Shown here: positions 6,431-63,910 of the stretch, in pieces | How the letters are laid out: each line of letters begins with the position of its first letter | Position numbering within the stretch: the first letter of the stretch is position 1 | Origin: Candidatus Saccharimonadota bacterium | Lineage (GTDB): Bacteria; Patescibacteriota; Saccharimonadia; Saccharimonadales; AQU-01 | Assembly: GCA_037137935.1 (NCBI GenBank) | Contig: JBAXJI010000001.1 | Span: forward strand, 1,771 to 65,770 | Length of the DNA: 64,000 nucleotides | Reading direction: 5' to 3' | Position numbers and translations under genes: made by a program | Notes under the pieces: generated by a model | What the model saw: only the letters and a program-made list of their open reading frames with translations | The model's database searches: none | What the model was told of the DNA's origin: nothing

Positions 6431-9400
6431 CTAGTTGTTTCGATCGATATTGATGACATGCTCTGTGTGCGTTGATGCAGGAGTAGTTTTGCCTAGATGA
6501 AGTTCGCCGTTATGGACTGGCTCTGGACTAACTTGGGCTGGAACAGGTTGAGCGGCGTTATGGTTTAGGCTCTCTCGCAATTCGGCGGCAACACCTGCTA
6601 TCTCCTTATCCTCAAGCTGAGAACTGGAGATATTAGTTGTTGTGGTGGCTGGGTGCGTAGTTTCTGTAAAAGGAAGCCTATGGGCGCTGTCACGGGTCAA
6701 AGACTCGCTATCATCTTGATCAGTAGCTATGAATTTGGAATCATGGCGATCAATTTGAGGTGAAATAGTCGCAGTGTCTGGGGTGGCGGCTGGAATATTA
6801 TTGGCTGCAACGACTGGACTATTGCTGGCCACAGGCGCTACCGGTAATGGTGTTGGTGCTATCGGCGGTTGAGGCTGACTGGCCTGTGGCGCAACAGATG
6901 GCTTGGCAGGCTGCCCAGCGCCTGCAGGAGTGACTGTTTGACGCTTAGTTAACCAATCATCCAAAAACGACGGTGCAGGAGCTCCAGGCGCTCTTGGAGG
7001 CGCGGTAGGGGCTGGACTAGCTGGCCTTTGACCACCAACTGAAGCAGCGGGCGTTGGAGCCTCTACGGTTTTAAGTCTGGCAAATATTTCTTTCTCTATC
7101 TGATCCTTAGCTCGCCCAAATTTTGCTGCCGACAATTGTTTAAGCGCCTTACCTAGTTCTAAATTAGCTGACCCTAGTGGAGGCAAAGTAGCCATGCTGA
7201 AGGATTGCGTCGGAATACCGCCAATCAACATCTGTGTAATAGTGTTAAAGTTTGGAATACGCAACACATCCTCGCGTTCAAAAATTGGCGAAAACTTCTT
7301 GCTCAAACTGTCAGCATCAGCATCCGACCCGACACGGAAAGACACAGTCGTACCAACGTTACCAAATACGGCATCACGAATCTCATCTGTTAACTGAGTA
7401 GTGAATTGGTTGGCAACGATCAAGTTAAGGCGATACTTTCTGGCCTCTGACATGATTGTGGCAAAAGAATCTGTGGCAAAGTTCTGGAACTCATCAACAT
7501 ATAGACAAAAATCTTGTCGATCGTCCTCATAAATATCGGCTCGGCTCATGGCGGCAGCTTGGAACTTCATAACAAAAATCATACCCAACAGTTTTGAGTT
7601 CAACTCTCCTGTACGCCCCTTAGACAAGTTAACGAATAGGATCTTTTTATTATCCATAATGTCTCTAAGGTTGAATGAGCTCTTCTGCTGACCGATGATA
7701 TTACGCATCATCTCGTTAGACAAAAACGCACCGAACTTACTCACAACCCAGCTTGTGACCTCACCTGCCTCGTTTGACTTCTGTGAGTTCGGCCACTCTT
7801 TGGTCCAGAAATCTAACACGTTACGATCGGTCACGTACTGCAACTTAGCTTTCATAAACTCTGAATCAATCAGTAGTTTTGGAATATCGACGAAGGTTCC
7901 ACCCTTAGGATCAGCCATTAGAAGTAAGGCGCTATTGGTGAATATACGCTCAAACCTAGGCCCAATTATTCCCTGCTTTTGTGGGTCATACAATTTATAA
8001 AGCATGTTGATGGATTCTTGAATCAAAAAGTCCTTCTGCTCAGGAGCGTAGAACTCAAACAGGTTTAGACCCATTGGGAAATCCATGTCGGATGGGTTGA
8101 AGTAGACAATATCCTCGGTGCGTTCCTTCGGAACCATAGACATAAGGTTGTCTACTGTGTCACCGTGAGGATCAACAAAAGCGAACCCCCTACCCGCTAG
8201 CATGTCCTGAAGTGCCAAATTTTCTAGAAACACCGACTTTCCTGTACCCGTCTGTCCAACTACATACATGTGGCGACGGCGGTCCTCTAGACTCAACCGT
8301 ATAGGCTTTTTGACGCCACGAAACACATTGTAGCCAAGCATCAGGCCGTTTTCGGGCATATTGCGTGGACCATCAACCTGCTTAGAGGCTTGACGAGCAA
8401 GCTGTGTAGTAGGTATATTCTTGTGATCTGGGAAGTGAAATAGCGTAGCTAATTCAACAGAGTTTAGAATATTCTTATTATTCTCTTGCGGGAAAAATCT
8501 CATAATAAATGCTGTGGCAAAACTTTCTATATCTGCAGCGTCAGTGTATTTGAAACCGTTTTTGCCAGGCGCATCAAATAAAGAAAACGCAGCCACCATA
8601 CTGCTCTTAATAGCTTGTGCCTTTTGCGGATTATTAGAAGATGCAATGACACGAATCAAGACTTCAAATCCAGGGTGCCTTGTCTTGTCATCTATGGCGT
8701 CAACTATCTGCTGATCAAGAGCTGACAACTGTTTTGTCTGAGACTTTTCACTAGTACCACCGACATGCTCGGGAGGTCGCCAAAGTGCTGCTGGAACTTG
8801 GCGCCACCAACCAATCGTAGAACTGTTAAATTTAGTTTTACTGCTCTCGCCACCGCGCTTCTCAGAAGAAACAGATTGCGACTGCTTGCGCCAATCGTCA
8901 TGCGCTGGCCTCATCAATAGCTGGATTCCCGCTCCGTCGTCCTTATCTAATGTAGACAACGAGTTCAAAATCGACTGCATGGCGTCGCGCTTTAGCTCTT
9001 GATAAGTAGCAATTGGATAAGCAAAATTCTCTTTTAATGTAAGCTCACCGCCAGCAGTCCCACTAATCTTACCGATTGGACTAAATATATTGTGTTCAGC
9101 AACTTCTTCTAGCTGAGCGGTCGGGTAAGCACTGTTTACAGCCTGCTTCACGACCTCAACTAACGCTATCGGCACAGCGGCGTAAAAGCTAACAATTCCC
9201 TTGCTCGCTATGATTTCAAAGCCAAAATGACGCTGTCCGTAAAACTTATTCTTGAACGAGGCCTTCTGGATTGTGCTAGCAATAATGCCATAAAGAACCT
9301 GAGATTTAGATATATTCTCGTCAATCAAATCGCGCACATCGCGGCCGTTTTCGTGATTATCTTCACTAAGTGGCGGCAAGTGTATAAGCATCGGGACGAC

Positions 9401-13818: not shown

Positions 13819-14454
13819 ATGAAATATGAAGTTCCTTTTGTTGCTAATACATCTGATGACTTGCACTGTTTACAGGCGGCTTACATGATGATTACAAAGT
13901 TTTTCCAGAAAGACTTCGATATATGTATGGACGAATGGTCACAACTTACCGGTTTTGAAACAGATAAAGGCACCTGGGCCAATGCGGGATTATTATGGTT
14001 TATGGACAATGGGTATGATGTCAGCCACATTTCCCTTTTTGATTACAAATCTTTCGTGAATAGCCCCGAAGACTACCTTGTTAAGCTCACAGGTGAAAAG
14101 GTTGGAGCTTGGCAGATAGCGCACACCAATATCCCTGCCGAAGTCAGTAGGGTTAAAAAGTTATTGGAATCTGGAGTAATAGAGAGACGCGAACCAACCA
14201 TCGAAGATATTAAGAACTTACTTGATGATGGATATTTAGTCCGAGTCATGGTCAACTCCTCTAGACTTAATGGCACGGACGGCTATATTGGCCATGCCGT
14301 ACCAATTATAGGGTATGATGAAGAGAATATAATTTTCCATGATCCAGGCCTTCCACCACTAGAAAATCGTAGAATAAGCATCAATGACTTCGAAAAAGCC
14401 TGGGCCGACCCCAACCCCGAATCAAAAGAACTCGACGCCATCAAACTCGTATAA
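13819..14454 (+). CDS. Papain-fold cysteine peptidase, peptidase C39-like domain protein
   Basis: 211 aa. Cys in DDLHCLQAAYMMI and His in GHAVPIIGYDEEN-IIFHDP are spaced as in C39/BtrH-like peptidases. Confidence 0.5.
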   Translation: MKYEVPFVANTSDDLHCLQAAYMMITKFFQKDFDICMDEWSQLTGFETDKGTWANAGLLWFMDNGYDVSHISLFDYKSFVNSPEDYLVKLTGEKVGAWQIAHTNIPAEVSRVKKLLESGVIERREPTIEDIKNLLDDGYLVRVMVNSSRLNGTDGYIGHAVPIIGYDEENIIFHDPGLPPLENRRISINDFEKAWADPNPESKELDAIKLV

Positions 14455-15868: not shown

Positions 15869-15899
15869 ACACCGCCTTTTAGGGGCGGTGTTTTTATAT
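15869..15899. terminator. Bidirectional intrinsic terminator between convergent rplT and rnpB
   Basis: ACACCGCC-tttta-GGGGCGGTGT is flanked by an A-run upstream and TTTTTAT downstream, so both strands have U-tracts. Confidence 0.65.
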
Positions 15900-15901
15900 A
15901 T

Positions 15902-16270
15902 GCCAGATGATCTGTAAGCCGGGTTCTGTCCTCGTTTGCACGAGTTCTGATCATCTATCTAGGCCTAAAATTGCTCTTAGGCTCGAGCGGGTTTTGTGAA
16001 TTGCCTCGGCGGGACGCCTTATATGAGACATATCTCCTTGCAACGTACTGGGTTTACCTTCGTCTCATGTCACCATGAGATGCTGTGAGCTCTTACCTCA
16101 CTCGTTTCATCCTTACCGTCAGTCTTTCGACTGCTTAGGCGGTTTAGTTTCTGTGGCACTTTCCCTAGGGTTGCCCCCGGTCGCCGTTAGCGACAGTACT
16201 TCCCTGTGTTGCCCGGACTTTCCTACCGACCATTGTTGCCAATAGTCCGTCGATCAGTCGATTATCTGGC
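15902..16270 (-). ncRNA. rnpB: RNase P RNA (bacterial type A)
   Basis: The reverse complement contains GGAAAGTCCGGGC (P4 5' strand), GGGAAAGTGCCACAGAAA, GGTAAGAGCTCAC and the 3' ACAGAACCCGGCTTA (P4 3' strand). The terminal P1 pairs GCCAGAT with ATCTGGC. Confidence 0.85.
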
Positions 16271-16313: not shown

Positions 16314-17024
16314 TTAAACGGCTTTTAGGTCAGTATCATTCAAAATATCGTTAACCATACGGTCAGCTAACTGATTAAACTCTCTCGGTACATGAGTAAA
16401 ATTAACCTTTTTGAAGTTTTTAAGCTGATCAACAATAGCTTGGTGTATCGGCCATAAATCACGGTTTTTAATCTTAAATATGCCCTTCATTTGGTTGATT
16501 ACTAAGAGGCTGTCGAGAAACACATGCACCTCTTGAGCGCCCCGTTTATGCGCCTCATCTAGGCCAAGCTTTAGAGCCTGGTATTCTGCCTGATTATTAG
16601 TGGTAACTCCCAGATATAAACCGTTCTTAAAGATAACTTCGTCGTGCATATCTAATAAGACAAAACCGGCCGCAGAGGGACCAGGATTACCCCTAGAACC
16701 ACCGTCTGCATACAATTTAATTTCAATATCCTTGCCGATTTCAGCTGGCGATAACGTTGTGTTTTGCTCAACGAATTTTGTCTGAATCAATCTGTTATAA
16801 GCTGCGTCAATTGTCTCAGCAAGATGATGATCTTTGTTGGTAATAGTATCGCCAGCTTCGTGAGTAGATAACCAGATACCGACCTTATTCCATTCATTCT
16901 GCAATTTCGGATGGTGTTGCTGCTGCTCAGCCAGCTCAGCTACGGCCTCCATAAACTTAAAGGCCTCACGAAAGTTCTTAAAGCTAAATTCTTTGTATAA
17001 TTGATTGTTATCTATTTCCCACAT
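16314..17024 (-). CDS. rnhA: Fusion protein: N-terminal pterin-4a-carbinolamine dehydratase (PCD/PhhB) domain + C-terminal ribonuclease HI
   Basis: Residues 1-95 (FKNFREAFKFMEAVAELAEQQQHHPKLQNEWNKVGIWLSTHEAGD) match the PCD fold. Residues about 125-236 (IKLYADGGSRGNPGPSAAGFVL...NNQAEYQALKLGL...VHVFLDSLLVINQMKG) are RNase HI with DEDD catalytic positions. Confidence 0.7.
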   Translation of the reverse strand: MWEIDNNQLYKEFSFKNFREAFKFMEAVAELAEQQQHHPKLQNEWNKVGIWLSTHEAGDTITNKDHHLAETIDAAYNRLIQTKFVEQNTTLSPAEIGKDIEIKLYADGGSRGNPGPSAAGFVLLDMHDEVIFKNGLYLGVTTNNQAEYQALKLGLDEAHKRGAQEVHVFLDSLLVINQMKGIFKIKNRDLWPIHQAIVDQLKNFKKVNFTHVPREFNQLADRMVNDILNDTDLKAV

Positions 17025-23809: not shown

Positions 23810-23995
23810 CTAGAAGGGAGACTCTTACAGGGAGACTCCCTGCTAGATAGGCATTTGCAAGGTTGTCCTTTGCAAGGTGAAACCTTGCAACACTAGAAGG
23901 GAGACTCTTACAGGGAGACTCCCTGCTAGATAGTCCTTTGCAAGGTTGTCCTTTGCAAGGTGAAACCTTGCAACAAGGAGTCTCCCTGCTAGATA
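23810..23995. repeat. Tandem repeat of two about 83-bp units plus a partial third; members of a CCTTGCAAGG / CAGGGAGACTCCCTG palindrome family
   Basis: Units start at 23810 and 23893 (ctagaagggagactcttacagggagactccctgctagata...tttgcaaggttgtcctttgcaaggtgaaaccttgcaaca). Internal hairpins are ttgcaagg-tgaaa-ccttgcaa and cagggagactccctg. Confidence 0.7.
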
Positions 23996-31546: not shown

Positions 31547-31852
31547 CTAACTCTGCTTCGACTGAGTCTGATTACGACGAGCTTGAGTACTTAGCGCTTC
31601 AAAAGTTAGCGCCATAGTCTCGCTCATCAAACGGCGCACTGATATATCCTCACTAGAAGACATAATAAAACCACCAAGAACTCTCAAAAGTTCTGGTTGA
31701 GTATCGCGCATACCTTCGTGAGACAGTTTAATCAATGCTGGCAAATCAGAGTTCATGCCTTCAAAAATCTCCACAGCAACAGGAGCTTCCACTATTGGAA
31801 GATGATGTGGTCTAGGATGATTAGTCGGGCGCTCTTGAGGATTAGGCAACAT
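31547..31852 (-). CDS. Hypothetical protein
   Basis: 101-aa ORF. Confidence 0.3.
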   Translation of the reverse strand: MLPNPQERPTNHPRPHHLPIVEAPVAVEIFEGMNSDLPALIKLSHEGMRDTQPELLRVLGGFIMSSSEDISVRRLMSETMALTFEALSTQARRNQTQSKQS

Positions 31853-32010
31853 ATTACATAAATAATATCACCTTAATACTATAAGGGTCAAGATTATGCT
31901 TTAGTAGTATTATTTGCGGGGCTCGAGCGGATAGCGTTAAGTAAACTTTCGCAACCTCAAAACTAGTCTTGAGGTTGGTTTTAACATCAACATAATTTAG
32001 AAGTATGGGC

Positions 32011-32775
32011 CTATTTTATTACTGAGGGAGTTATACCGGCAATATCTTCTTTATCTAAATGTGATCCTTGTTCCTTCAATTTTAGGGCTTGGGCAATACG
32101 GTTATAAGCCACAACTCGCGCCATCTTATCTTCTAGTGCCTCCACAGATGACAATATAGTCTCAATATCTTCAGTACCTGTTAGCGTCTCGCTAACCAGT
32201 GCATCTATCGTTTGTTCGTCCTCTTCCCCGACCTGCACAACAAACATCGGGGTATCTAGATCAGCCTCAGGGCGTTCTTCAGAAAAACGGGTCTGCATAT
32301 GCTCTATTAATGCATCTTTCGATATCTTCTCGTCATCAATCCCTTCCAAAAGCTCCATAAGATACCCTTCAGCACCAATTTTACGTGCTGTATCACAAAG
32401 CTTGTCTATGCTATTCAATGCGACTTTTTCGGCAGGATCACGATATTTACGACCATAACTGCCCATTGAATCAGCATTTAAGATATTGCCTTTTACGGCT
32501 TGTAATTGGGCATCTAGGTACTTTGGGTCACCAGAAACCAACGCTAAGACACGAGCGGCGTTTGATTGGCCATGATCCAATCTTTCGTGAAGTTCGCTCG
32601 ATGCACGTTCATTTCCGTTTACGACTAAATATCCCAAGATCTCATTGCCACCAGGTTCGTAATCTTTTTCCGAAATACTATGCACGGCAAGCCATTCGGC
32701 ATTATCAATAGGGTTCATAGGCTCTGCTAGAGCTTCATCTAGTGGTTTTTCTTGACTATCTGTAATACTTTCCAT
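32011..32775 (-). CDS. Hypothetical acidic protein (cassette 1 of tRNA-Asp array)
   Basis: 254 aa. Bounded by the degenerate core at 31915 and the repeat at 32819. Confidence 0.4.
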   Translation of the reverse strand: MESITDSQEKPLDEALAEPMNPIDNAEWLAVHSISEKDYEPGGNEILGYLVVNGNERASSELHERLDHGQSNAARVLALVSGDPKYLDAQLQAVKGNILNADSMGSYGRKYRDPAEKVALNSIDKLCDTARKIGAEGYLMELLEGIDDEKISKDALIEHMQTRFSEERPEADLDTPMFVVQVGEEDEQTIDALVSETLTGTEDIETILSSVEALEDKMARVVAYNRIAQALKLKEQGSHLDKEDIAGITPSVIK

Positions 32776-32818
32776 GAGGTAAATAATAGCACTACCTTAA
32801 TAAAAGTCAAAACAATGC

Positions 32819-32895
32819 TCGACCGGATAGCGTCGGGCTTGCTCGCAGGCTAACCAGCCTGCGGCTTCCGCAAAAGCATCCTAGGTCGCAAATGT
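32819..32895 (-). repeat. tRNA-Asp 3'-end-derived att-like repeat + conserved arm
   Basis: ctcgaccggatagcgtcgggc...gcaggctaaccagcctgcggcttccgca. Confidence 0.7.
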
Positions 32896-32910
32896 TTTTA
32901 GTAAGTTACA

Positions 32911-34101
32911 TTAGAATTTATTCTTGTAGCAGAGCTCACCAGCGTCATGACGATTATAACTCTCATAAGCTGAGTAGCCATCAGTATCAATATTATTGAC
33001 CGAATAGTATGCGACATTAAAGTCTTTACTTTTCTTCTTGTAGTCCACACATAGTTTGTAATAGTAATTGTAAACAGGAACTTGTGGATTAGTGTCGTTA
33101 AATATTCTATAGGTATTAGTAGTACTAGAGGTATTAGTAGTACTAGTTATTTTGGATGGAGTGCCGTTACTATTTGGAGTATAACGCACCAGATTTCTGT
33201 CTATAATACTCTTCACATCACCTTGAGCATCCATTTGGCTCAATGTTTCAGGCAGTTTATTATTTTTACGTATGTAGACTTTTATTGCGGCATCGACACC
33301 CGTAAGATTTGATTCTAATAATTTATCATCACGCGTTAACCTAGCATTTGCCATTGGGCCAAAAATTCCTAATAAACAGATGATACCGACTGTTACCGCA
33401 ATAAATATCAAAAATGCCCGACGAACCCAAGGGAATTTGACTGGATTTAGTGTTCTCAAAAACACTGAAGCATAAATGACGGCAATGATTATCGAACTAA
33501 ACAGTGTAATTTGGGCGCCTGTTTTGTCGCCGCTAGACGTAAACATCTGAACCATAGAGAATGCTGCGCCAATTATCGCTCCAATACCAAATAGTGCAAA
33601 TATAACTGCGTGAATAATCATGACCGCCATGGCAGCACCAGTTTTCTTGACCTCTTCACGTTTGGTGAATAGTACATCGCAAATTACCGATATTGGAAGC
33701 AGCACGAGTACTGCAGCGATACCGTAAGGCGTGAAGCCGTCAGTACTCACATCTCCAATAAAAGTGGCAATAATAGTACTAACAAGTACGGATAGCGCCA
33801 ATACTGTCCATCCCCAAAAAGCATACGTAAGCCATTCGAGCACAATAATTCCTGCACCTGCAGATTCCTTTGCGAGAACTTGCTGAGGAACGTTTGTGGC
33901 AGACTGCTGGCTTGATAAGCCTTGCGATGGCTGCGCTACTAGTGGTTGAGGCGTCGCGATCGGGCTACTTACTGGTGCTACAACTTCAGCTGCTTGGTAG
34001 CTATTTAGAGTTTCGATTGATGGCGCGGGATTTGTCTGGTCAATATTAGGCGGCGCGGCAGGTTCTAGCGAATGAGGAATCGGATTTATGTCCATAAGCA
34101 C
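32911..34101 (-). CDS. Hypothetical polytopic membrane protein with Pro/Ser-rich N-terminus (cassette 2)
   Basis: 396 aa. At least 6 TM helices. Thr-rich C-terminal extracellular domain. Confidence 0.4.
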   Translation of the reverse strand: MLMDINPIPHSLEPAAPPNIDQTNPAPSIETLNSYQAAEVVAPVSSPIATPQPLVAQPSQGLSSQQSATNVPQQVLAKESAGAGIIVLEWLTYAFWGWTVLALSVLVSTIIATFIGDVSTDGFTPYGIAAVLVLLPISVICDVLFTKREEVKKTGAAMAVMIIHAVIFALFGIGAIIGAAFSMVQMFTSSGDKTGAQITLFSSIIIAVIYASVFLRTLNPVKFPWVRRAFLIFIAVTVGIICLLGIFGPMANARLTRDDKLLESNLTGVDAAIKVYIRKNNKLPETLSQMDAQGDVKSIIDRNLVRYTPNSNGTPSKITSTTNTSSTTNTYRIFNDTNPQVPVYNYYYKLCVDYKKKSKDFNVAYYSVNNIDTDGYSAYESYNRHDAGELCYKNKF

Positions 34102-34185
34102 AAGTATAATACACCTTAGGTTAAATAGACATTACATTAATTTTAAAACTTACCAAATCCAGAAACAATATTCAGGTCGTAAATA

Positions 34186-34300
34186 CCTGCCCGGATAGCG
34201 TCTGGCCTATGGCGCCGGCTAACCAGCCTGCGGCTTCCGCAAATTAGCTTAAGCCCCAACCGCCGGTTCAGCCTTTTTAGAAACTCGACCGGATAGCGTC
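34186..34300 (-). repeat. Two adjacent att-like repeat copies (one degenerate)
   Basis: ctgcccggatagcgtctggcc...ggctaaccagcctgcggcttccgca... then ctcgaccggatagcgtcggtagc. Confidence 0.65.
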
Positions 34301-34347
34301 GGTAGCTATTTTTTAGTCAACTCTCACACAATAGTCTTAGATGCAAT

Positions 34348-34824
34348 TTAGCTTCCAAACACCTGTTGTGCAATCACTACTTGATAAATATCTTTTTTTT
34401 GTTCAGCAGGAGGCAATTGGTCGAACGGAACATCAAGTTCACCGCCCTTAGCCCACTCGTTACGTGACATCCATGCGTCGTGAATAATAGAACCCACACT
34501 ACTGCGTTGTTCAGGGTTTTTAAGATCAATTTGAGCGTCTTTGTCCATCATCATACCTACCACAACTTCAGACGCGGCCTTGTTTTCTGCCTGCCAATCA
34601 CTAGGTAAGCTGTCGTATGCTGTATTTGCAATATCTACTTGGTCAGTACCATTTGCCGCAATCCATGCTTCATCCTTAGTGGACTTAACTCTAGGCTCAA
34701 ACGATCCATCTTCCTGTAGACGTGTTTTACGCCAATCTTCGTGCAAGGCCCCTGCTAGCTTATAAACTGCTGCTGCAACTACTTCTAACGGATCTGCACT
34801 TTGTGGTTCTTTTTCATCATTCAT
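34348..34824 (-). CDS. Hypothetical protein with two RyR-domain-like repeats (cassette 3)
   Basis: HEDWRKTRLQEDG... and IHDAWMSRNEWAKGGELDVPFDQLPPAEQKKD resemble the bacterial/phage RyR domain signature (W..GW/ lvpydeLpe.eK). Confidence 0.35.
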   Translation of the reverse strand: MNDEKEPQSADPLEVVAAAVYKLAGALHEDWRKTRLQEDGSFEPRVKSTKDEAWIAANGTDQVDIANTAYDSLPSDWQAENKAASEVVVGMMMDKDAQIDLKNPEQRSSVGSIIHDAWMSRNEWAKGGELDVPFDQLPPAEQKKDIYQVVIAQQVFGS

Positions 34825-34917
34825 CTTATGAATTTTCCTCTATGGTTAATTTTATTAAACTTAGTCTAATATTAGCCTAATGCTTATGTATTTCAAATCC
34901 CAGTGTTTGATGTGAGT

Positions 34918-35080
34918 TCGACCAGATAGCGTCTGGCCTTCGGCGCAGGCTAACCAGCCTGCGGCTTCCGCATATTAGCGGAACCGCAGCCGCCAGTTCA
35001 AATCACTGGCGACCCTGCCCAAAGTAAAAGACCAGTCATTCGACTGGTCTTTTACTTTGGCGGGCCGTAGCGGGAGCTGT
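34918..35080 (-). repeat. att-like repeat (ttcgaccagatagcgtctggcc...) plus an 18-bp perfect hairpin terminator
   Basis: Conserved arm gcaggctaaccagcctgcggcttccgcatattagcggaaccgcagccgccagttcaaatcactgg. Hairpin AAAGTAAAAGACCAGTC-attc-GACTGGTCTTTTACTTTG. Confidence 0.65.
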
Positions 35081-35086
35081 CCGGAA

Positions 35087-35410
35087 CTACTTCTCAGGTT
35101 CTGTACTAGAGAAAGAAGCGTTCAATGCGTCAGCGCCTGCCTGGCGTTCTAATAGAACCAGTGTTCCCACTAGCACTTCAAACATTGGTTGATGAAGCTC
35201 GCTAGGGTACTTGCCGACTTGCATTTCAATAAAAGCAACGAGATTAGGGTTGGTTGCCATAACCTTATTTTGCATCTCAGTTAATCGTTCACCCCAAGCC
35301 TGACCATCACCGTTATTATTTGTATACTGACTTTTTAGGGCTTCTAATGTTTCGCCAGATATAACTGGGATACTAGCCTCGTCTGATGGCTGTTTTTCAG
35401 AATTATCCAC
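35087..35410 (-). CDS. Hypothetical protein (cassette 4, distal gene)
   Basis: 107 aa. Overlaps the upstream ORF by 8 bp. Confidence 0.35.
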   Translation of the reverse strand: MDNSEKQPSDEASIPVISGETLEALKSQYTNNNGDGQAWGERLTEMQNKVMATNPNLVAFIEMQVGKYPSELHQPMFEVLVGTLVLLERQAGADALNASFSSTEPEK

Positions 35411-36149
35411 GGCTAACTACCCCTTTCAAAAGACTTTTGACAGTGCGCTTAGGTGGAATGGCTTGCGAGATTTCTGGCGTACCAGAACCAAGCTGAACGG
35501 TACCGTCAGACATTCGACGACGGATATCTACAGCCATTTCCTTGGCTTCGGCAATCTGTTCTTCACTCATACCACGCTGACGTTGAGCTTCAACAATGTC
35601 TCCGATATTCCAAGCAGGCAAACCACGAGCAAAAGCTACAGCAAGCTGGTGAGTATTGAGGCCTTGCAACGTACCAGCCTTGTTGGCTACAAGATGATGG
35701 TCGTGTGACACGGCGGCGTCTATAAGGGTTCCTGAAAGCTGAACACCACGACTGCCAGCTTCTTCAATATCTTGAACTGGTTCATACCACATCTCCCAAT
35801 CCTTTGGCACTTGACCGCTAAAGTGCTGCTTCCAGGCAAGCTCCCAACGCTTCGAAACAATGTCACGACTAAGTGAGCCACGGGTTCGGTCCTCATCCCA
35901 ATGCGGGTTGTTCTTGTACCATTCAGCTCTACTCGCAATATCATCTTCAGCAACAGAGTGTTCTGTTGACGGATCAAATATGTATACGCCATCCGTAAAC
36001 ATACTGCGCTCTAAATCGCTAACATTAGGATTGGCAAGAGTTTCTTTTACTGGCGAGGCCAGAACTAGCTCTAGGTTTTCTGATTTAGGTTTTTGTGTTT
36101 CAGGCAATGTCATAGTTTGTATACTAGCATAAGCTTGTTGATTTGTCAA
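35403..36149 (-). CDS. Hypothetical protein (cassette 4, proximal gene)
   Basis: 248 aa. Confidence 0.4.
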   Translation of the reverse strand: MTNQQAYASIQTMTLPETQKPKSENLELVLASPVKETLANPNVSDLERSMFTDGVYIFDPSTEHSVAEDDIASRAEWYKNNPHWDEDRTRGSLSRDIVSKRWELAWKQHFSGQVPKDWEMWYEPVQDIEEAGSRGVQLSGTLIDAAVSHDHHLVANKAGTLQGLNTHQLAVAFARGLPAWNIGDIVEAQRQRGMSEEQIAEAKEMAVDIRRRMSDGTVQLGSGTPEISQAIPPKRTVKSLLKGVVSRG

Positions 36150-36320
36150 TCTGATGCGCGCCGGCTAACCAGCCTGCGGCTTCCGCAAAGTTAGCCTAAG
36201 CCGCAGCCGCCGGTTCAGTATTCTTAGAAACTCGACCGGATAGCGTCGGGCTAGCGCGCCGGCTAACCAGCCTGCGGCTTCCGCAAAATAGCGGAACCGC
36301 AGCCGCCGGTTCAAATCCGA
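36150..36320 (-). repeat. Two tandem copies of the conserved arm with a central att-like core (ctcgaccggatagcgtcgggc)
   Basis: gcgcgccggctaaccagcctgcggcttccgcaaa... occurs twice. The second copy ends gccgccggttcaaatccg, identical to the tRNA-Asp T-arm. Confidence 0.7.
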
Positions 36321-36439
36321 AGAGACGCGTGCAAGAAAAAAGCCCCAAACCCTTCGGGGTTGAGACTTTTATCTTGGCGGGGCATGGAGTCGGATTTTAG
36401 AACTAAATTGTTAGAAAATTAGTCATCTTCACTGTGAGT

Positions 36440-37372
36440 TTATTTGAAGCTATCTGGATCTTCATATATACCAAGCTTTTCAAGCTCTTTTCTAGCTTCT
36501 ACTGGATCGACTATTTCCTCTACAATCCTACGTGCTAAACGATTAAACCATTCTTTTGTGCGTTCACTAAGTTCTAGCTTGTATACTCCTTGCTCTACAA
36601 GCGCTTCAGTAATCATAGTTCTCGTTATTTTACTAAGCAGTGGGGTCATGTCAGACGGCACGTCTAAAGAACTTTCTTCTTTAAAATTATTTTCCCTGCG
36701 CTCTTGTGTAATATCTGATTCTGTTAAAATTGGGTACTCGTCGCTTACGGCATTCGGGGCATTTATGTTGTTTAAGGCTCCAGATCGAATATGAACAGTA
36801 ATAGATAAATCAAATGGTCGACGGCTATCTTCTGATGGCTTCTCGGCGAATAATTCATATCTTATTCCGTTTAAAGAATTGCTATCGGCGTACACCTCCA
36901 CCCAAGAGAAATCTGGGTGATCGACCTCTCCAGAATAGCTGATGAATCTACCACTATGATTGCCGTAAATTGCATCTTGAAGGTCTTGAACGTAGAATAA
37001 TCGTTCCAATTCATCTGTTCTGTGCTTCATTGCATCTAAGGTTGTAGGTTCGGGATCGGCAAAGTTTGAACTAATAGGCCATATACTTCGTACAAGATCA
37101 CGCCCAGTTAAACCGTCTTTTGAATTTCGCTCAAGACGACTGACAAGTCCTTCACGTACTGCTGCAATGGCCTCGTCTGAACCACCAACTAAACCAGCTG
37201 ATCTGAATGTATGTGATTCTGGTTCAAACAGTCTGCCCATGACTTCATCTACGCTGGCAGGTAAATCTACGTCAATGTTTTCGGGACTCGACTGACTAAT
37301 TGCATTGAGCCTAGACTCGATGCTAAGTGGAGCTTGATCTTGATCGGGGTTCGAGTCGTTGGGTACGCTCAT
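36440..37372 (-). CDS. Hypothetical protein (cassette 5)
   Basis: 310 aa. An intrinsic terminator (AACCC-cgaa-GGGTT GGGGC TTTTTT on the minus strand) lies at about 36335-36360. Confidence 0.4.
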   Translation of the reverse strand: MSVPNDSNPDQDQAPLSIESRLNAISQSSPENIDVDLPASVDEVMGRLFEPESHTFRSAGLVGGSDEAIAAVREGLVSRLERNSKDGLTGRDLVRSIWPISSNFADPEPTTLDAMKHRTDELERLFYVQDLQDAIYGNHSGRFISYSGEVDHPDFSWVEVYADSNSLNGIRYELFAEKPSEDSRRPFDLSITVHIRSGALNNINAPNAVSDEYPILTESDITQERRENNFKEESSLDVPSDMTPLLSKITRTMITEALVEQGVYKLELSERTKEWFNRLARRIVEEIVDPVEARKELEKLGIYEDPDSFK

Positions 37373-37502
37373 TTTTACCTTTTTTATTTTTTAATTTAAT
37401 TATTAGTCTAGTTATTATCTTAGCATTAAAGTTTGTATATGTCAAGTACGTGTGGTTGTTAGGAGACAAGAAGAAAAACACTTCTTAAAAGAAGTGCTTA
37501 TG

Positions 37503-37610
37503 CTTGGCGGGCTCGACCGGATAGCGTCTGGCTTGCTCGCAGGCTAACCAGCCTGCGGCTTCCGCATATTAGCTTAAGCCGCAGCCACCGGTTCAAATCG
37601 CTGGCGACCC
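37503..37610 (-). repeat. att-like repeat with a perfect 19-bp tRNA-Asp 3' core (ttggcgggctcgaccggat) + conserved arm
   Basis: ttggcgggctcgaccggatagcgtctggcttgctcgcaggctaaccagcctgcggcttccgcatattagcttaagccgcagccaccggttcaaatcgctgg. Confidence 0.75.
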
Positions 37611-37670
37611 TGTCCACAACAAAATAACCGCCCATAATGTGAGCGGTTATTAAGTTGAGGAATCTGGTTA

Positions 37671-37994
37671 CTAGAGACCTTTGACTTTGTCGTAAATCTC
37701 AGCAGCCTGTCCAGCCTGATTGTCAGCTTCTGTCCGTGCAGCCTGTGCTTGCTCGGCTTGCTGAGTAGATGCGCGTACTGGACCTCTGTTTTCAATATCT
37801 CGGAATCTCGTATTGCCGATATTGCTTGCGGCTTCTAAGGCAAGACCACGGGCATGAACAACTGCTTCTTCTGCAGCCTTAGAGGCATAAGCCATAATCT
37901 CAGCTTTATGTGGGTCTACTACGGCGTTAGGGTGTTCCTGCAGGTAGTCTACTGGCTGTTCTGGCTGTTGAGAAATTGGTTCTTGTTCGCTCAT
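37671..37994 (-). CDS. Hypothetical protein (cassette 6)
   Basis: 107 aa. A terminator hairpin AATAACCGC...GCGGTTATT lies downstream at about 37615-37650. Confidence 0.35.
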   Translation of the reverse strand: MSEQEPISQQPEQPVDYLQEHPNAVVDPHKAEIMAYASKAAEEAVVHARGLALEAASNIGNTRFRDIENRGPVRASTQQAEQAQAARTEADNQAGQAAEIYDKVKGL

Positions 37995-38134
37995 TGTTAT
38001 AATTCCTTACTTAAATTATTATTTATTATTTGTTTTAGGTTATTGAACCTTAGCAACATACTAGCATGACCATGTTGATTTGTCAATAATTCTTAGCGCT
38101 TACAAGAAGCACATCTTTCAGAATTATTATGCTT

Positions 38135-38282
38135 GGCGGGCTCGACCGGATAGCGTCTGGCCTCTGGCGCAGGCTAACCGGGCCGTGACCTCGGCAAAAT
38201 TAGCCGAGTCACTTGCGCCGGTTCAAATCGCAAGTCAAAGACTTGCCCAAACAAAAAGCCCCATCAAAGATGGGACATTTTG
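38135..38282 (-). repeat. att-like repeat (perfect 19-bp core) + divergent arm + terminator of tRNA-Asp
   Basis: ttggcgggctcgaccggatagcgtctggcc...ccggttcaaatcgcaag... then minus-strand CCCATC-tttg-ATGGGG CTTTTTGTTT immediately 3' of tRNA-Asp. Confidence 0.7.
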
Positions 38283-38284
38283 TT

Positions 38285-38360
38285 TGGCGGGCTCGACCGG
38301 ATTTGAACCGGCGATCTCCTCCGTGACAGGGAGGCATGTTAACCACTACACCACGAGCCC
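38285..38360 (-). tRNA. tRNA-Asp (anticodon GTC), CCA encoded
   Basis: The reverse complement is GGGCTCG TG GTGT-AGTGGTTA-ACAT G CCTCC-CTGTCAC-GGAGG AGATC GCCGG-TTCAAAT-CCGGT CGAGCCC G CCA. Confidence 0.85.
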
Positions 38361-43290: not shown

Positions 43291-43365
43291 TGGTGCCTCC
43301 GAGAGGATTCGAACCTCTAGCTTCTCCTTAGGACGGAGTTATTTTATCCATTGAACTACGGAGAC
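43291..43365 (-). tRNA. tRNA-Arg (anticodon CCT), CCA encoded
   Basis: The reverse complement is GTCTCCG TA GTTC-AATGGATAAAAT-AAC...CTCC-GTCCTAA-GGAG...AGAGG-TTCGAAT-CCTCT CGGAGGC A CCA. The D-stem is weak. Confidence 0.65.
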
Positions 43366-43370
43366 AAAAT

Positions 43371-43415
43371 TTGCTGGCGGACGGAGCTATTTTATCCATT
43401 GAACTATGGGGGCCT
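43371..43415 (-). pseudogene. tRNA 5'-half fragment (pseudo-tRNA) immediately upstream of tRNA-Arg
   Basis: The reverse complement GGCCCCCATAGTTCAATGGATAAAATAGCTCCGTCC parallels the first about 35 nt of the adjacent tRNA-Arg (different acceptor strand) but lacks a matching 3' half. Confidence 0.4.
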
Positions 43416-44054: not shown

Positions 44055-44097
44055 AGCTCCTAGACATTGCAAGGTCTCACCTTGCAACAAGGTGAGA
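44055..44097. repeat. 15-bp perfect palindrome of the CCTTGCAAGG family
   Basis: ttgcaaggtctcaccttg-caa-caaggtgagaccttgga. Confidence 0.6.
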
Positions 44098-44191
44098 CCT
44101 TGGAGTGCCTTGCGGTAAAAAGTATTTTTTGCTGTTATGTGGCTATCACTTTGGTTTGTGTCGTACAATAAGGTTATGTTAATGAGTAAAT

Positions 44192-45109
44192 GTGATGTTA
44201 TTTAGCAAAGCAAAGACTGATTATTTGGAATATCTTGAGATTGAGCAAAATCGATCCCAGAAGACTATAGCCAATTATGATCATTATCTGACACGCTTAA
44301 TAGATTTTGCCGGAGAGATAAAAATAAGTGAAATCGATGCTGAACTTATTCGTAAATGGCGTCTCTGGCTAAATAGACTCGGCACCAACACCTCTGACGA
44401 ATTACAAAAATCGACACAGAACTATCATCTTATAGCTTTAAGAAGTTTTTTGAAGTACTGCGCTAAGCGTGACATCCCTGCCCTTACGGCTGACAAAATC
44501 GAACTCGCCCGAACCGTCCGTAAACAAGTAACATTCTTGAACGAAGACGAGCTAGACCGTCTATTTGCCCAACCCGATATCAGCAAGTTGTCTGGCATTC
44601 GTGATCGAGCAATCCTAGAGCTACTCTTTAGTAGTGGTCTGCGCGTATCGGAGCTTGTTGGGCTCGACAAAGACCATATCAACCTGAAGCGACGCGAGTT
44701 TATGGTTAGAGGTAAGGGCCAGAAAGATCGTCCTATCTTTATTAGTCCAGCAGCCGCTAAGTGGCTAAGCCACTACTTAGAAAAACGCGAAGATAATGTT
44801 AAGCCGCTATTCGTCCGTTATAGTGGCAGCAAAAAAGTTGACCTATCTGGCGACTTTCACAGATTGACTGCGCGTAGTGTCCAACGATTAGTCGCCCGTT
44901 ACGCCCTGCTAGCCGGAATAACCAAACATGTCAGCCCACACACACTCAGACACAGCTTTGCTACCGACCTAATCATGAACGGCGGTGATTTACGCGCCGT
45001 ACAAGCCATGCTAGGCCACAGCAATATCGCCACAACGCAAATCTACACCCACGTTACCGACCCTCACCTTCGTGCTATCCACGAAAAGTTTCACCGCAAA
45101 GACAACTAG
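44192..45109 (+). CDS. xerC: Tyrosine site-specific recombinase, XerC/XerD family
   Basis: N-terminal SAM-like core-binding domain (YLEYLEIEQNRSQKTIANYDHYL). The catalytic C-terminus has R...HxxR...Y (LRHSFATDLIMNGGDLRAVQAMLGHSNIATTQIYTHV). Confidence 0.8.
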   Translation: MMLFSKAKTDYLEYLEIEQNRSQKTIANYDHYLTRLIDFAGEIKISEIDAELIRKWRLWLNRLGTNTSDELQKSTQNYHLIALRSFLKYCAKRDIPALTADKIELARTVRKQVTFLNEDELDRLFAQPDISKLSGIRDRAILELLFSSGLRVSELVGLDKDHINLKRREFMVRGKGQKDRPIFISPAAAKWLSHYLEKREDNVKPLFVRYSGSKKVDLSGDFHRLTARSVQRLVARYALLAGITKHVSPHTLRHSFATDLIMNGGDLRAVQAMLGHSNIATTQIYTHVTDPHLRAIHEKFHRKDN

Positions 45110-63841: not shown

Positions 63842-63910
63842 CCTTTGCAAGGTCTCTCCTTGCTCCAAGGAGAGACCTTGCAAGTCGTCCTTGCAAGTCT
63901 TGCAAGACAG
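63842..63910. repeat. CCTTGCAAGG-family palindromic repeat (15-bp perfect stem plus CTTGCAAG palindromes)
   Basis: caaggtctctccttg-ctc-caaggagagaccttg, then gtccttgcaagtcttgcaagac. Confidence 0.6.

Follow-up and report, generated by a model that had tools for sequence, protein, structure and literature searches.

Tandem tRNA-Asp-derived modules separating small gene cassettes in a Candidatus Saccharibacteria genome

Organization of the tRNA-Asp locus

The DNA analysed here is a 64,000-nt chromosomal segment (the window) of a Candidatus Saccharibacteria (TM7) metagenome-assembled genome (MAG). The segment has a G+C content of 43% and contains RNase P RNA, five tRNAs and housekeeping genes (those for type IV pili, gyrB, thrS, IF3, enolase, tgt and queA); its enolase is 100% identical to an NCBI protein assigned to a 'Candidatus Saccharibacteria bacterium'. 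Beside the 3' end of tRNA-Asp(GTC), to which tRNA-Thr and tRNA-Gly adjoin, lies an array of small gene cassettes separated by a spacer module, present as eight copies or remnants at 31915-38284 (Table 1; the core-only copy at 34284 is counted with the module starting at 34186). All module copies in the window belong to this single array and have a single orientation. Their repeated core, a putative att core, corresponds to the last 18 nt of tRNA-Asp and reads TGGCGGGCTCGACCGGAT on the + strand; this sequence or the shorter CTCGACCGGAT is repeated at 31915, 32818, 34284, 34918 (diverged to TCGACCAGAT), 36231, 37505, 38134 and 38285. The core is followed by an arm, of which a 27-mer, GCCGGCTAACCAGCCTGCGGCTTCCGC, has six matches in the window at up to 3 mismatches (0 expected), while a divergent seventh copy of the arm lies at 38134. 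An 18-mer from the T-arm-like end has four matches (0.01 expected).

The modules separate six cassettes, all on the tRNA-Asp strand, with one open reading frame (ORF) each apart from c8, which has two. A sigma-70-like promoter is present in five of the six (9-10 of 12 matches, with an extended -10 element in four), and terminator-like hairpins are flagged downstream of c6, c10 and tRNA-Asp. The cassette proteins are ORFans: the scans placed none of them in a Pfam, PHROG or PADLOC family. The G+C content of the cassettes is similar to that of the genome. Cassette c2 is flanked by a ~20-bp direct repeat of the core, (C)TCGACCGG[A/C]TAGCGTC[G/T]GG, and c10 by a direct repeat of TGGCGGG. The ends of c2 are identical in three left and three right contexts. 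Homologues of c2 are found mostly on short contigs, and one member of the family (64% identical, L182 7001-7495) lies in an ordinary stretch of chromosome between Peptidase_M48 and RNase T genes, away from tRNA-Asp.

Table 1. Features of the tRNA-Asp array and the candidate recombinase gene, in window coordinates
Feature	Coordinates	Strand	Description
Distal-most module remnant	31915-31937	+	TGCGGGGCTCGAGCGGATAGCGT; degenerate core plus first 7 nt of arm
Cassette c18	31938-32817	-	ORF 32011-32775, 254 aa, ORFan; own promoter 32810-32783
Module U1	32818-32875	+	Core CTCGACCGGAT plus arm cut off in the long-hairpin loop (after CTTCCGCAAAA); linked to cassette c5
Cassette c5	32876-34185	-	ORF 32911-34101, 396 aa; five hydrophobic segments
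Module U2	34186-34270	+	Ends at GGTTCA; followed by linker GCCTTTTTAGAAA (34271-34283)
Core-only copy	34284-34302	+	CTCGACCGGATAGCGTCGG; left boundary of cassette c2
Cassette c2	34303-34917	-	ORF 34348-34824, 158 aa; 186 homologues
Module U3	34918-35065	+	Core, arm, inverted pseudo tRNA-Asp 3' end CGCCAGTTCAAATCACTGGCGACCCTGCC, bidirectional terminator, TGGCGGGC
Cassette c8	35066-36155	-	ORFs 35087-35410 and 35403-36113; promoter TTGACA-17-TAGTAT at 36149-36121
Module U4a	36156-36217	+	5'-truncated, coreless; starts GCGCGCCGGCTAACC, ends GGTTCA; nhmmer profile positions 33-104
13-nt linker	36218-36230	+	GTATTCTTAGAAA; joins truncated arm to next core
Module U4b	36231-36381	+	Core, complete arm (36242-36319), terminator, TGGCGGG
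U4b core	36231-36241	+	CTCGACCGGAT; reverse complement of tRNA-Asp just upstream of its GCCA end
U4b inverted T-arm copy	36302-36319	+	GCCGCCGGTTCAAATCCG; opposite strand from tRNA-Asp; 16/16 nt for CGCCGGTTCAAATCCG
U4b terminator	~36336-36374	bidirectional	- strand terminator flagged at 36359-36343
U4b end motif	36375-36381	+	TGGCGGG, sequence motif
Cassette c10	36382-37504	-	ORF 36440-37372, 310 aa; begins with degenerate tRNA-3'-like core GCATGGAGTCGGATTTTAGAAC
Module U5	37505-37616	+	Full 18-nt core TGGCGGGCTCGACCGGAT, arm, inverted pseudo tRNA 3' end
Cassette c6	37617-38133	-	ORF 37671-37994, 107 aa; own terminator 37651-37623, promoter 38086-38058
Module U6	38134-38284	+	Full core, divergent arm (variant 2); carries tRNA-Asp terminator; directly abuts tRNA-Asp
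tRNA-Asp(GTC)	38285-38360	-	Array anchor; ARAGORN, Rfam tRNA (68.2 bits) and sequence
Xer-like tyrosine recombinase, core gene	44192-45109	+	6 kb from array

Anatomy of the module

A module is 115-150 bp long, with a conserved middle of ~65 nt, and consists of five parts. The first is the core, the reverse complement of the last 11-18 nt of tRNA-Asp, (TGGCGGG)CTCGACCGGAT on the + strand, of which only CTCGACCGGAT is kept universally. Conservation starts sharply at CTCGACC, and in many copies the adjoining TGGCGGG half has degenerated, giving TGCGGGG, TGAAGGG, AAATG, TTGAG, TTAAG or AGAAA. The second part is conserved in sequence (AGCGTCKGGC-N7-9-GCMGGCTAACC), and the third is a long hairpin of 9-12 bp that is maintained with compensatory changes. 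The fourth is an oppositely oriented pseudo-copy of the tRNA-Asp 3' 14-29 nt, comprising T-stem, T-loop, acceptor and CCA, and the fifth is a palindromic, bidirectional terminator.

As judged from sequence identity, both ends of the module are derived from tRNA-Asp. In the better preserved copies at 34918 and 37505 the homology covers ~29 nt with 23 of 29 positions identical, as in the match of CGCCAGTTCAAATCACTGGCGACCCTGCC to the tRNA-Asp 3' end, CGCCGGTTCAAATC-CGGTCGAGCCCGCC, and is longer than the inverted T-arm piece that had originally been predicted at the far end of the arm. In U4b the homology is reduced to 16 nt, all identical and on the opposite strand from the tRNA, as predicted. 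The module is more than a duplicated tRNA tail: next to its core it has an arm, conserved and structured, whose far end is the inverted pseudo-copy of tRNA-Asp, and the tRNA-Asp 3' end in both orientations gives it imperfect terminal inverted repeats of ~18-29 nt. Because the terminator is palindromic, tRNA-Asp, terminator and inverted pseudo-copy together form a large imperfect palindrome. The same layout is present in two other species, and the inverted pseudo-copy in L180 carries TTCGAAT, as does L180's own tRNA-Asp. The T-arm-like sites ACCGG-ATAGCGT-CTGGC and CCGGT-TCAAATC-ACTGG alternate in orientation, and a dif-like consensus is not present.

The region 36150-36320 was expected to hold two arms back to back around one core, and it does so as a direct tandem, with the first arm (U4a) 5'-truncated and the second (U4b) complete. 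This type of junction, in which a truncated arm is joined through a linker to the next core, recurs at 34271-34283 and in the related contigs L016, L011 and L017. The long hairpin of U4a is variant 1b-like, and that of U4b is CTGCGGCTTCCGC-AAAATA-GCGGAACCGCAG. Folding of the region is stronger than that of shuffled sequence (z = -3.25 for the + strand and -4.19 for the - strand, as DNA), and U3, the best preserved copy, gives RNA fold z values of -4.2 and -4.1.

Hairpins and covariation

In all, 36 distinct module sequences were gathered, their sources being the window plus genomic and metagenomic contigs of relatives, and the 26 full-length units among them were aligned. The two hairpins originally assigned to every arm fare differently in this alignment. 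The 7-bp hairpin (gcaggct/agcctgc) is perfect in 7 of the 26 units, carries a C.T mismatch in both U4a and U4b (gccggct/agcctgc) and is not present in the copy at 38134. Its pair 33-47 is standard in 8 units and unpaired in 18, its pair 35-45 is broken in 8, and essentially no compensation is seen across the 26 units. Since its 3' strand overlaps the 5' strand of the long hairpin (shared CTGC), the two cannot both form in full. It also competes with a helix GTCKG/CMGGC, which is T-A in 13 units, G-C in 8, C-G in 1 and broken in 4.

The long hairpin, by contrast, which had been described as an imperfect stem of roughly 12 bp, exists and carries compensatory changes. Four sequence variants are found, CTGCGG[C]TTCCGC/GCGGAACCGCAG, CTGCGGCTT/AAGCCGCAG, GTGAC[C]TCGGC/GCCGAGTCAC (variant 2, in U6, compensated relative to variant 1) and GCGATTTCGC/GCGAAATCGC, and a fifth version occurs in species L050 (GCGAC[C]TTTGC/GCGAAGTCGC). 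Among them, double compensatory changes occur at 3-4 pairs, with tallies of CG 19 and UA 6 for pair 49-75, GC 15 and AU 10 for pair 51-73, and CG 8 and GC 7 for pair 56-69. In the candidate helices, + strand G.T wobbles outnumber A.C mismatches (P1 25 vs 3, P2 26 vs 0, P0 16 vs 0, P4 37 vs 15), which hints that the + strand is the folding strand, the counts stemming from few invariant columns.

The predicted folds do not resemble that of an attC site: they are multibranched, with 3-4 local hairpins, and the module ends pair over 6 bp only. The end-closing helix GACCGG/CCGGTT is uninformative because it is nearly invariant, and in the sole unit with changes in it (34918) the closing helix is broken and the local hairpins are improved. 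On the + strand the elements stand in tRNA order: a short GGCT-AACC-AGCC hairpin, 1 nt, the long hairpin with a 6-7 nt loop, 4-5 nt, and a T-arm-like hairpin with TTCAAAT. A GGCTAAC...GTTAGCC pair occurs in a minority of copies only (window 36160-36199, and as GCTAAC/GTTAGC in variant-3 units). A genuine tRNA-Lys on a phage contig (L179 4751-4825) was a chance match to the arm pattern; its D-arm reads GGCT-AACCAGGAA-AGCC, from which the arm hairpin GGCT-AACC-AGCC was recognised as D-arm-like.

Two further candidates were rejected. Read on the - strand, the module resembles a class-II-like tRNA (5' GGGCAGG ... CGAGCCC GCCA) because it contains the inverted tRNA pseudo-copy, and only 4-5 of 7 acceptor pairs are formed. 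A - strand promoter within the arm (TTGAAC-17/18-TAnnnT, from the inverted T-loop to the hairpin loop) matches at ~8 of 12 positions, below the scan threshold, and is a weak idea.

Strain-level variation of the array

Strains with 96-100% identical enolase share the same flanks and differ in array content. No cassettes and only two empty modules are found in L004, L040, L042 and L046-48, one to three cassettes in L002, L030, L041 and L045, and six in the window, and at least 12 cassette families occur across closely related strains. A complete module is retained beside tRNA-Asp even in the 'empty' arrays. At the other end of the array, where the window has the distal-most remnant next to a conserved flanking gene (31547-31852), L004 and L040 have a complete module. 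The order of the cassettes differs as well: c18-c5-c2-c8-c10-c6 in the window, c2-c7-c5 in L041, c10-c5 in L020 and c6-c13-c11 in L026. Cassettes at this locus are gained, lost and reordered between strains. Some junctions are shared, for example that of U1 with c5, which recurs in L023, L041 and L019.

All-against-all BLAST comparison yields no single crossover point. Only the left ends of the homology blocks are clustered, at module positions 2-12; otherwise the block ends are spread over the module. Modules are mosaic, with interchangeable left, hairpin and tail segments and with breakpoints located in GGCTAACC, the loop of the hairpin or the tail; in L023, for example, the left part of a U3-type module is joined to the right part of the c5 module. 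The spread of block ends and the mosaic modules show that homologous recombination between modules certainly contributes. Cassettes c2 and c7 in L041 and L045 are bounded by only ~20-26 bp of module sequence.

Many metagenomic contigs of the species end just right of tRNA-Asp, as seen at the starts of L035, L036, L039, L044 and L049, and L030 has a run of N inside the array (8026-8139). Assemblies evidently break at the hypervariable tRNA-Asp locus.

Distribution

A module pattern was scanned against 185,579 GTDB species genomes. Two Candidatus Saccharimonas MAGs matched, both at the tRNA-Asp locus only. A further match is L003, a contig of a Burkholderiaceae-labelled MAG with a divergent copy in a cassette-like context, which we guess to be mis-binned. 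The remaining four genome matches are due to chance. The arm, for which a search of other genomes had been suggested, is found in related strains and in a second species, and in whole MAGs only at the tRNA-Asp locus. The second species, L050, whose enolase is 78% identical, has one complete module beside tRNA-Asp, with the first ~40 nt near-identical and the hairpin compensated. When enolase synteny was followed among more distant relatives, only L050 retained the locus, L052, L054 and L056-58 not being syntenic, and the L180, L181 and L182 loci yielded no further copies when searched with a covariance model of the module. Three pattern scans of viral contigs, checked with an nhmmer profile, gave chance matches only, and no phage or plasmid-like contig with the arm was found. 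The literature searched holds no description of such an array in Saccharibacteria.

In another Saccharibacteria species (L056 1-8100), ~12 co-oriented small ORFans lie upstream of enolase without a tRNA. They are separated by a 57-nt terminator-plus-promoter motif in 3 copies and may form a different cassette-like array.

The Xer-like recombinase

The sole recombinase among the window ORFs scanned is the Xer-like tyrosine recombinase, which lies beside ndk and pilus genes in all relatives; the other ORFs there are housekeeping genes. The protein scores 255 bits against XerC (cut-off 335), 228.6 bits against XerA_Arch (cut-off 220) and 133 bits against the TIGR02249 integron integrase (cut-off 265).

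Two other kinds of repeat have a copy in its vicinity. The tRNA-Arg(CCT) at 43291-43365 (- strand) has a 31-nt segment of its 5' half duplicated 48 nt away at 43379-43409, with 94% identity. This duplication lies between the PPIase-side genes and the ndk/Xer-like gene, could be another tRNA-linked recombination scar, and is the position at which L050 has extra genes. A family of nested palindromes, TTGCAAGGT-N3-5-ACCTTGCAA and CAAGGTGAGACCTTG, occurs at 23810-23992, 44064-44106 and 63842-63884. Upstream of tRNA-Val it takes the form of a tandem duplication of 83 nt, and another copy precedes the Xer-like gene by ~90 nt; the family may be a REP-like (repetitive extragenic palindromic) element or an operator.

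Interpretation of the module

The reading that we favour, with confidence that is evenly balanced, is that the segment 36150-36320 consists of junction modules of the att type, belonging to a cassette array that lacks an integrase and occupies a tRNA-Asp integration hotspot, to which scrambling by homologous recombination is added. Self-contained cassettes, each a gene with usually its own promoter and terminator, would recombine in and out at the tRNA-derived, T-arm-like core. Every such event would duplicate the core, and the module would act as an attL/attR or attC-like site. It would also give a terminator to the adjoining tRNA or pseudo-tRNA end and insulate neighbouring cassettes. The recombinase would act in trans, the nearby core Xer-like enzyme being the only candidate seen, and homologous, RecA-type recombination between near-identical modules would reshuffle the cassettes and make the modules mosaic. 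The original prediction of an attP-type site fits in that the modules bound discrete cassettes that are gained, lost and reordered; it does not fit in that no integrase is present for a classical attP/attL/attR set.

Several observations weigh against this reading. No integrase is found in or next to the array in any of ~40 related contigs, and the assignment of the Xer-like protein as a candidate trans-acting enzyme is pure inference. The junctions between cassette and module lie at positions ~19, 27, 33, 63 and >106 on one side and ~2, 8-10, 13 and 34 on the other, rather than at a single fixed crossover as in integrons. Some breakpoints fall within the arm, with a chimeric, broken hairpin in L019 and L020, and homologous recombination alone could produce the mosaicism of the modules. 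Neither excised circles nor nucleotide-exact reciprocal pairs of empty and filled sites are demonstrable, and assembled arrays cannot tell circles from tandem copies. The species L180 and L181, reached via c2 homologues, have tRNA-Asp cassettes with partial tRNA repeats and without this arm, so that the arm is not essential for cassette accumulation. Finally, the covariation comes from only ~4 hairpin haplotypes of related, recombining sequences, which inflates its shuffle-based significance; the covariation is real, and its statistics are not strong.

A serious rival, possible if on the whole unlikely, is that homologous recombination acts without any site-specific recombinase, the modules being homology anchors and transcriptional insulators. 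Cassettes would enter by natural transformation and RecA-dependent double crossover within modules, unequal crossing-over would lose or duplicate them, and the tRNA pieces would be ancient scars. The mosaic modules with their scattered breakpoints, the L023 chimera, the lack of an integrase in the array and the type IV pilus or competence-type genes nearby are all consistent with this explanation. However, the ~20-26 bp of module sequence around c2 and c7 is short for RecA-dependent exchange, and the sharp start of conservation at CTCGACC beside a decaying TGGCGGG also speaks against it. The conservation of the first 40 nt at 78% enolase identity, together with the compensated hairpin, implies constraint beyond homology.

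A more specific form of site-specific capture, which we regard as rather improbable, is an integron-like system without an integrase, in which Saccharibacteria would use self-expressed cassettes with a foldable tRNA-Asp-derived att site, the housekeeping Xer-like recombinase for recombination at the tRNA-Asp 3' end, and possibly single-stranded DNA from natural transformation. In such a system the att site must fold, which would account for the compensated hairpin and the strand bias of the wobbles.

Improbable, too, is the explanation that the arm is a structured non-coding RNA, a degenerate tRNA-like transcript of the + strand that is convergent with tRNA-Asp and shares its bidirectional terminator, whose function would explain the conservation and whose copies would have become numerous only as passengers of the cassettes. 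The tRNA order and spacing of the + strand elements, the compensatory pairs of the long hairpin, the excess of G.T wobbles over A.C mismatches and the terminator-like hairpins that also follow on the + strand would all suit such an RNA. However, no Rfam or tRNA model matches the modules at the gathering threshold, and admitting E values up to 10 over 31800-38300 adds only P26 and ctRNA, at chance level. ARAGORN makes no call on them, and no acceptor helix is found by inspection. In addition, the T-stem is broken in type-2 tails (75% paired), no conserved + strand promoter precedes the modules across contexts, many truncated copies are retained at cassette boundaries, and just a few invariant columns account for the wobble excess.

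Functionless debris, that is, decaying tRNA-Asp tails and pseudo-tRNAs left by old integrations of lost elements, would account for the many truncated or chimeric copies and for the arrays without the arm in related species. It is very improbable given the ~40 nt that are near-identical between species with 78% identical enolase, the hairpin kept via compensatory substitutions and the complete module beside tRNA-Asp even in 'empty' arrays.

The original suggestion of a miniature inverted-repeat transposable element, a non-autonomous element with tRNA-derived ends that has multiplied locally, is essentially excluded: the module is small (~115 nt) and structured and has imperfect terminal inverted repeats, but all copies in the window and in the whole Saccharimonas MAGs lie in one array, at one locus and in one orientation, no target-site duplications are seen (the flanks being halves of palindromic terminators), and no transposase is present among the window ORFs scanned.

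Comparison with known systems

The tRNA-seeded islands with serial integrations and scattered partial tRNAs that are established for tycheposons (bioRxiv 10.1101/2020.12.28.424599) are the closest described phenomenon. Integron/CALIN arrays and pdif modules are analogous in function, but the features that define them are not recognisable here. Like the tycheposon islands of Prochlorococcus and other products of tRNA-targeted integration by tyrosine integrases, the array is anchored at a tRNA 3' end, and a partial copy of that end recurs as a direct repeat on either side of each unit. Insertions of different age are stacked in tandem, the content differs between close strains, and assemblies break at the locus. 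Unlike in those islands, the units here carry neither an integrase nor replication genes (none of the window's cassette proteins matches Pfam, PHROG or PADLOC, and no integrase is annotated in related arrays) and are single-gene cassettes of 0.5-1.4 kb instead of multi-kb elements. The repeated site also goes beyond a partial tRNA: it spans 115-150 bp and combines a conserved structured middle with an inverted pseudo-copy of the tRNA and a terminator.

Integron cassette arrays include the CALIN, a cluster of attC sites without an integrase. With them, the array shares tandem, co-oriented, small and mostly ORFan cassettes, bounds consisting of a ~100-nt structured repeat with inverted core-like ends, a stem maintained by structure and not by sequence, the shuffling of cassettes between strains, and a Xer-related tyrosine recombinase as the nearest candidate enzyme. 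By contrast with integrons, the array has no IntI, attI or Pc (the integron cassette promoter) and no flanking recombinase, and a promoter is detected in five of its six cassettes, whereas integron cassettes are promoterless. The module is tRNA-derived, is not one long imperfect hairpin, and lacks RYYYAAC/GTTRRRY cores.

The Xer-dependent modules, namely the pdif modules of Acinetobacter plasmids and the integrative mobile elements exploiting Xer (IMEX) at dif, are likewise small gene modules without their own recombinase, with short, partly palindromic recombinase-type sites in alternating orientation and presumed mobilisation by host Xer. They differ in their 28-bp dif-like site, of which none is recognisable here, the T-arm-like sites having arms of 5-7 bp around 7 nt. 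Unlike pdif modules, the array is chromosomal and located at a tRNA, and a role of Xer would be an inference in this case. REP sequences and bacterial interspersed mosaic elements (BIMEs) are also mosaics of short palindromic motifs downstream of genes and near terminators, but they are dispersed genome-wide, whereas the module occurs at a single locus and goes with the boundaries of cassettes.

Significance

Saccharibacteria and other Patescibacteria have genomes of ~1 Mb with very few recognised mobile elements, and the turnover of their accessory genes is poorly understood. At the tRNA-Asp locus, a compact hotspot, near-identical strains exchange individual genes, the majority of which carry a promoter of their own. 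Should the module prove to be a genuine recombination site for a host recombinase, it would represent a new and minimal way of capturing genes that bears comparison with integrons or pdif modules, and would offer a ready landing pad for genetic tools in a phylum that is hard to manipulate. With capture of the integron-like kind, these ultra-small epibionts would moreover have a locus dedicated to the sampling of accessory genes. On the conservative reading too, the array explains the assembly breaks at tRNA-Asp and marks a rapidly turning-over pool of ORFans.

Other features of the window

Two inverted-repeat pairs, 13574-13612/14607-14645 (39 nt, 79% complementary) and 13744-13775/14457-14488 (32 nt, 91%), are nested around the Peptidase_C39-like ORF 13819-14454 and could mark a segment that is invertible or bounded by hairpins. 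The ORF 16314-17024 (- strand), next to RNase P RNA (15899-16269), encodes an unusual fusion of pterin-4a-carbinolamine dehydratase with an RNase H/RVT_3 domain.

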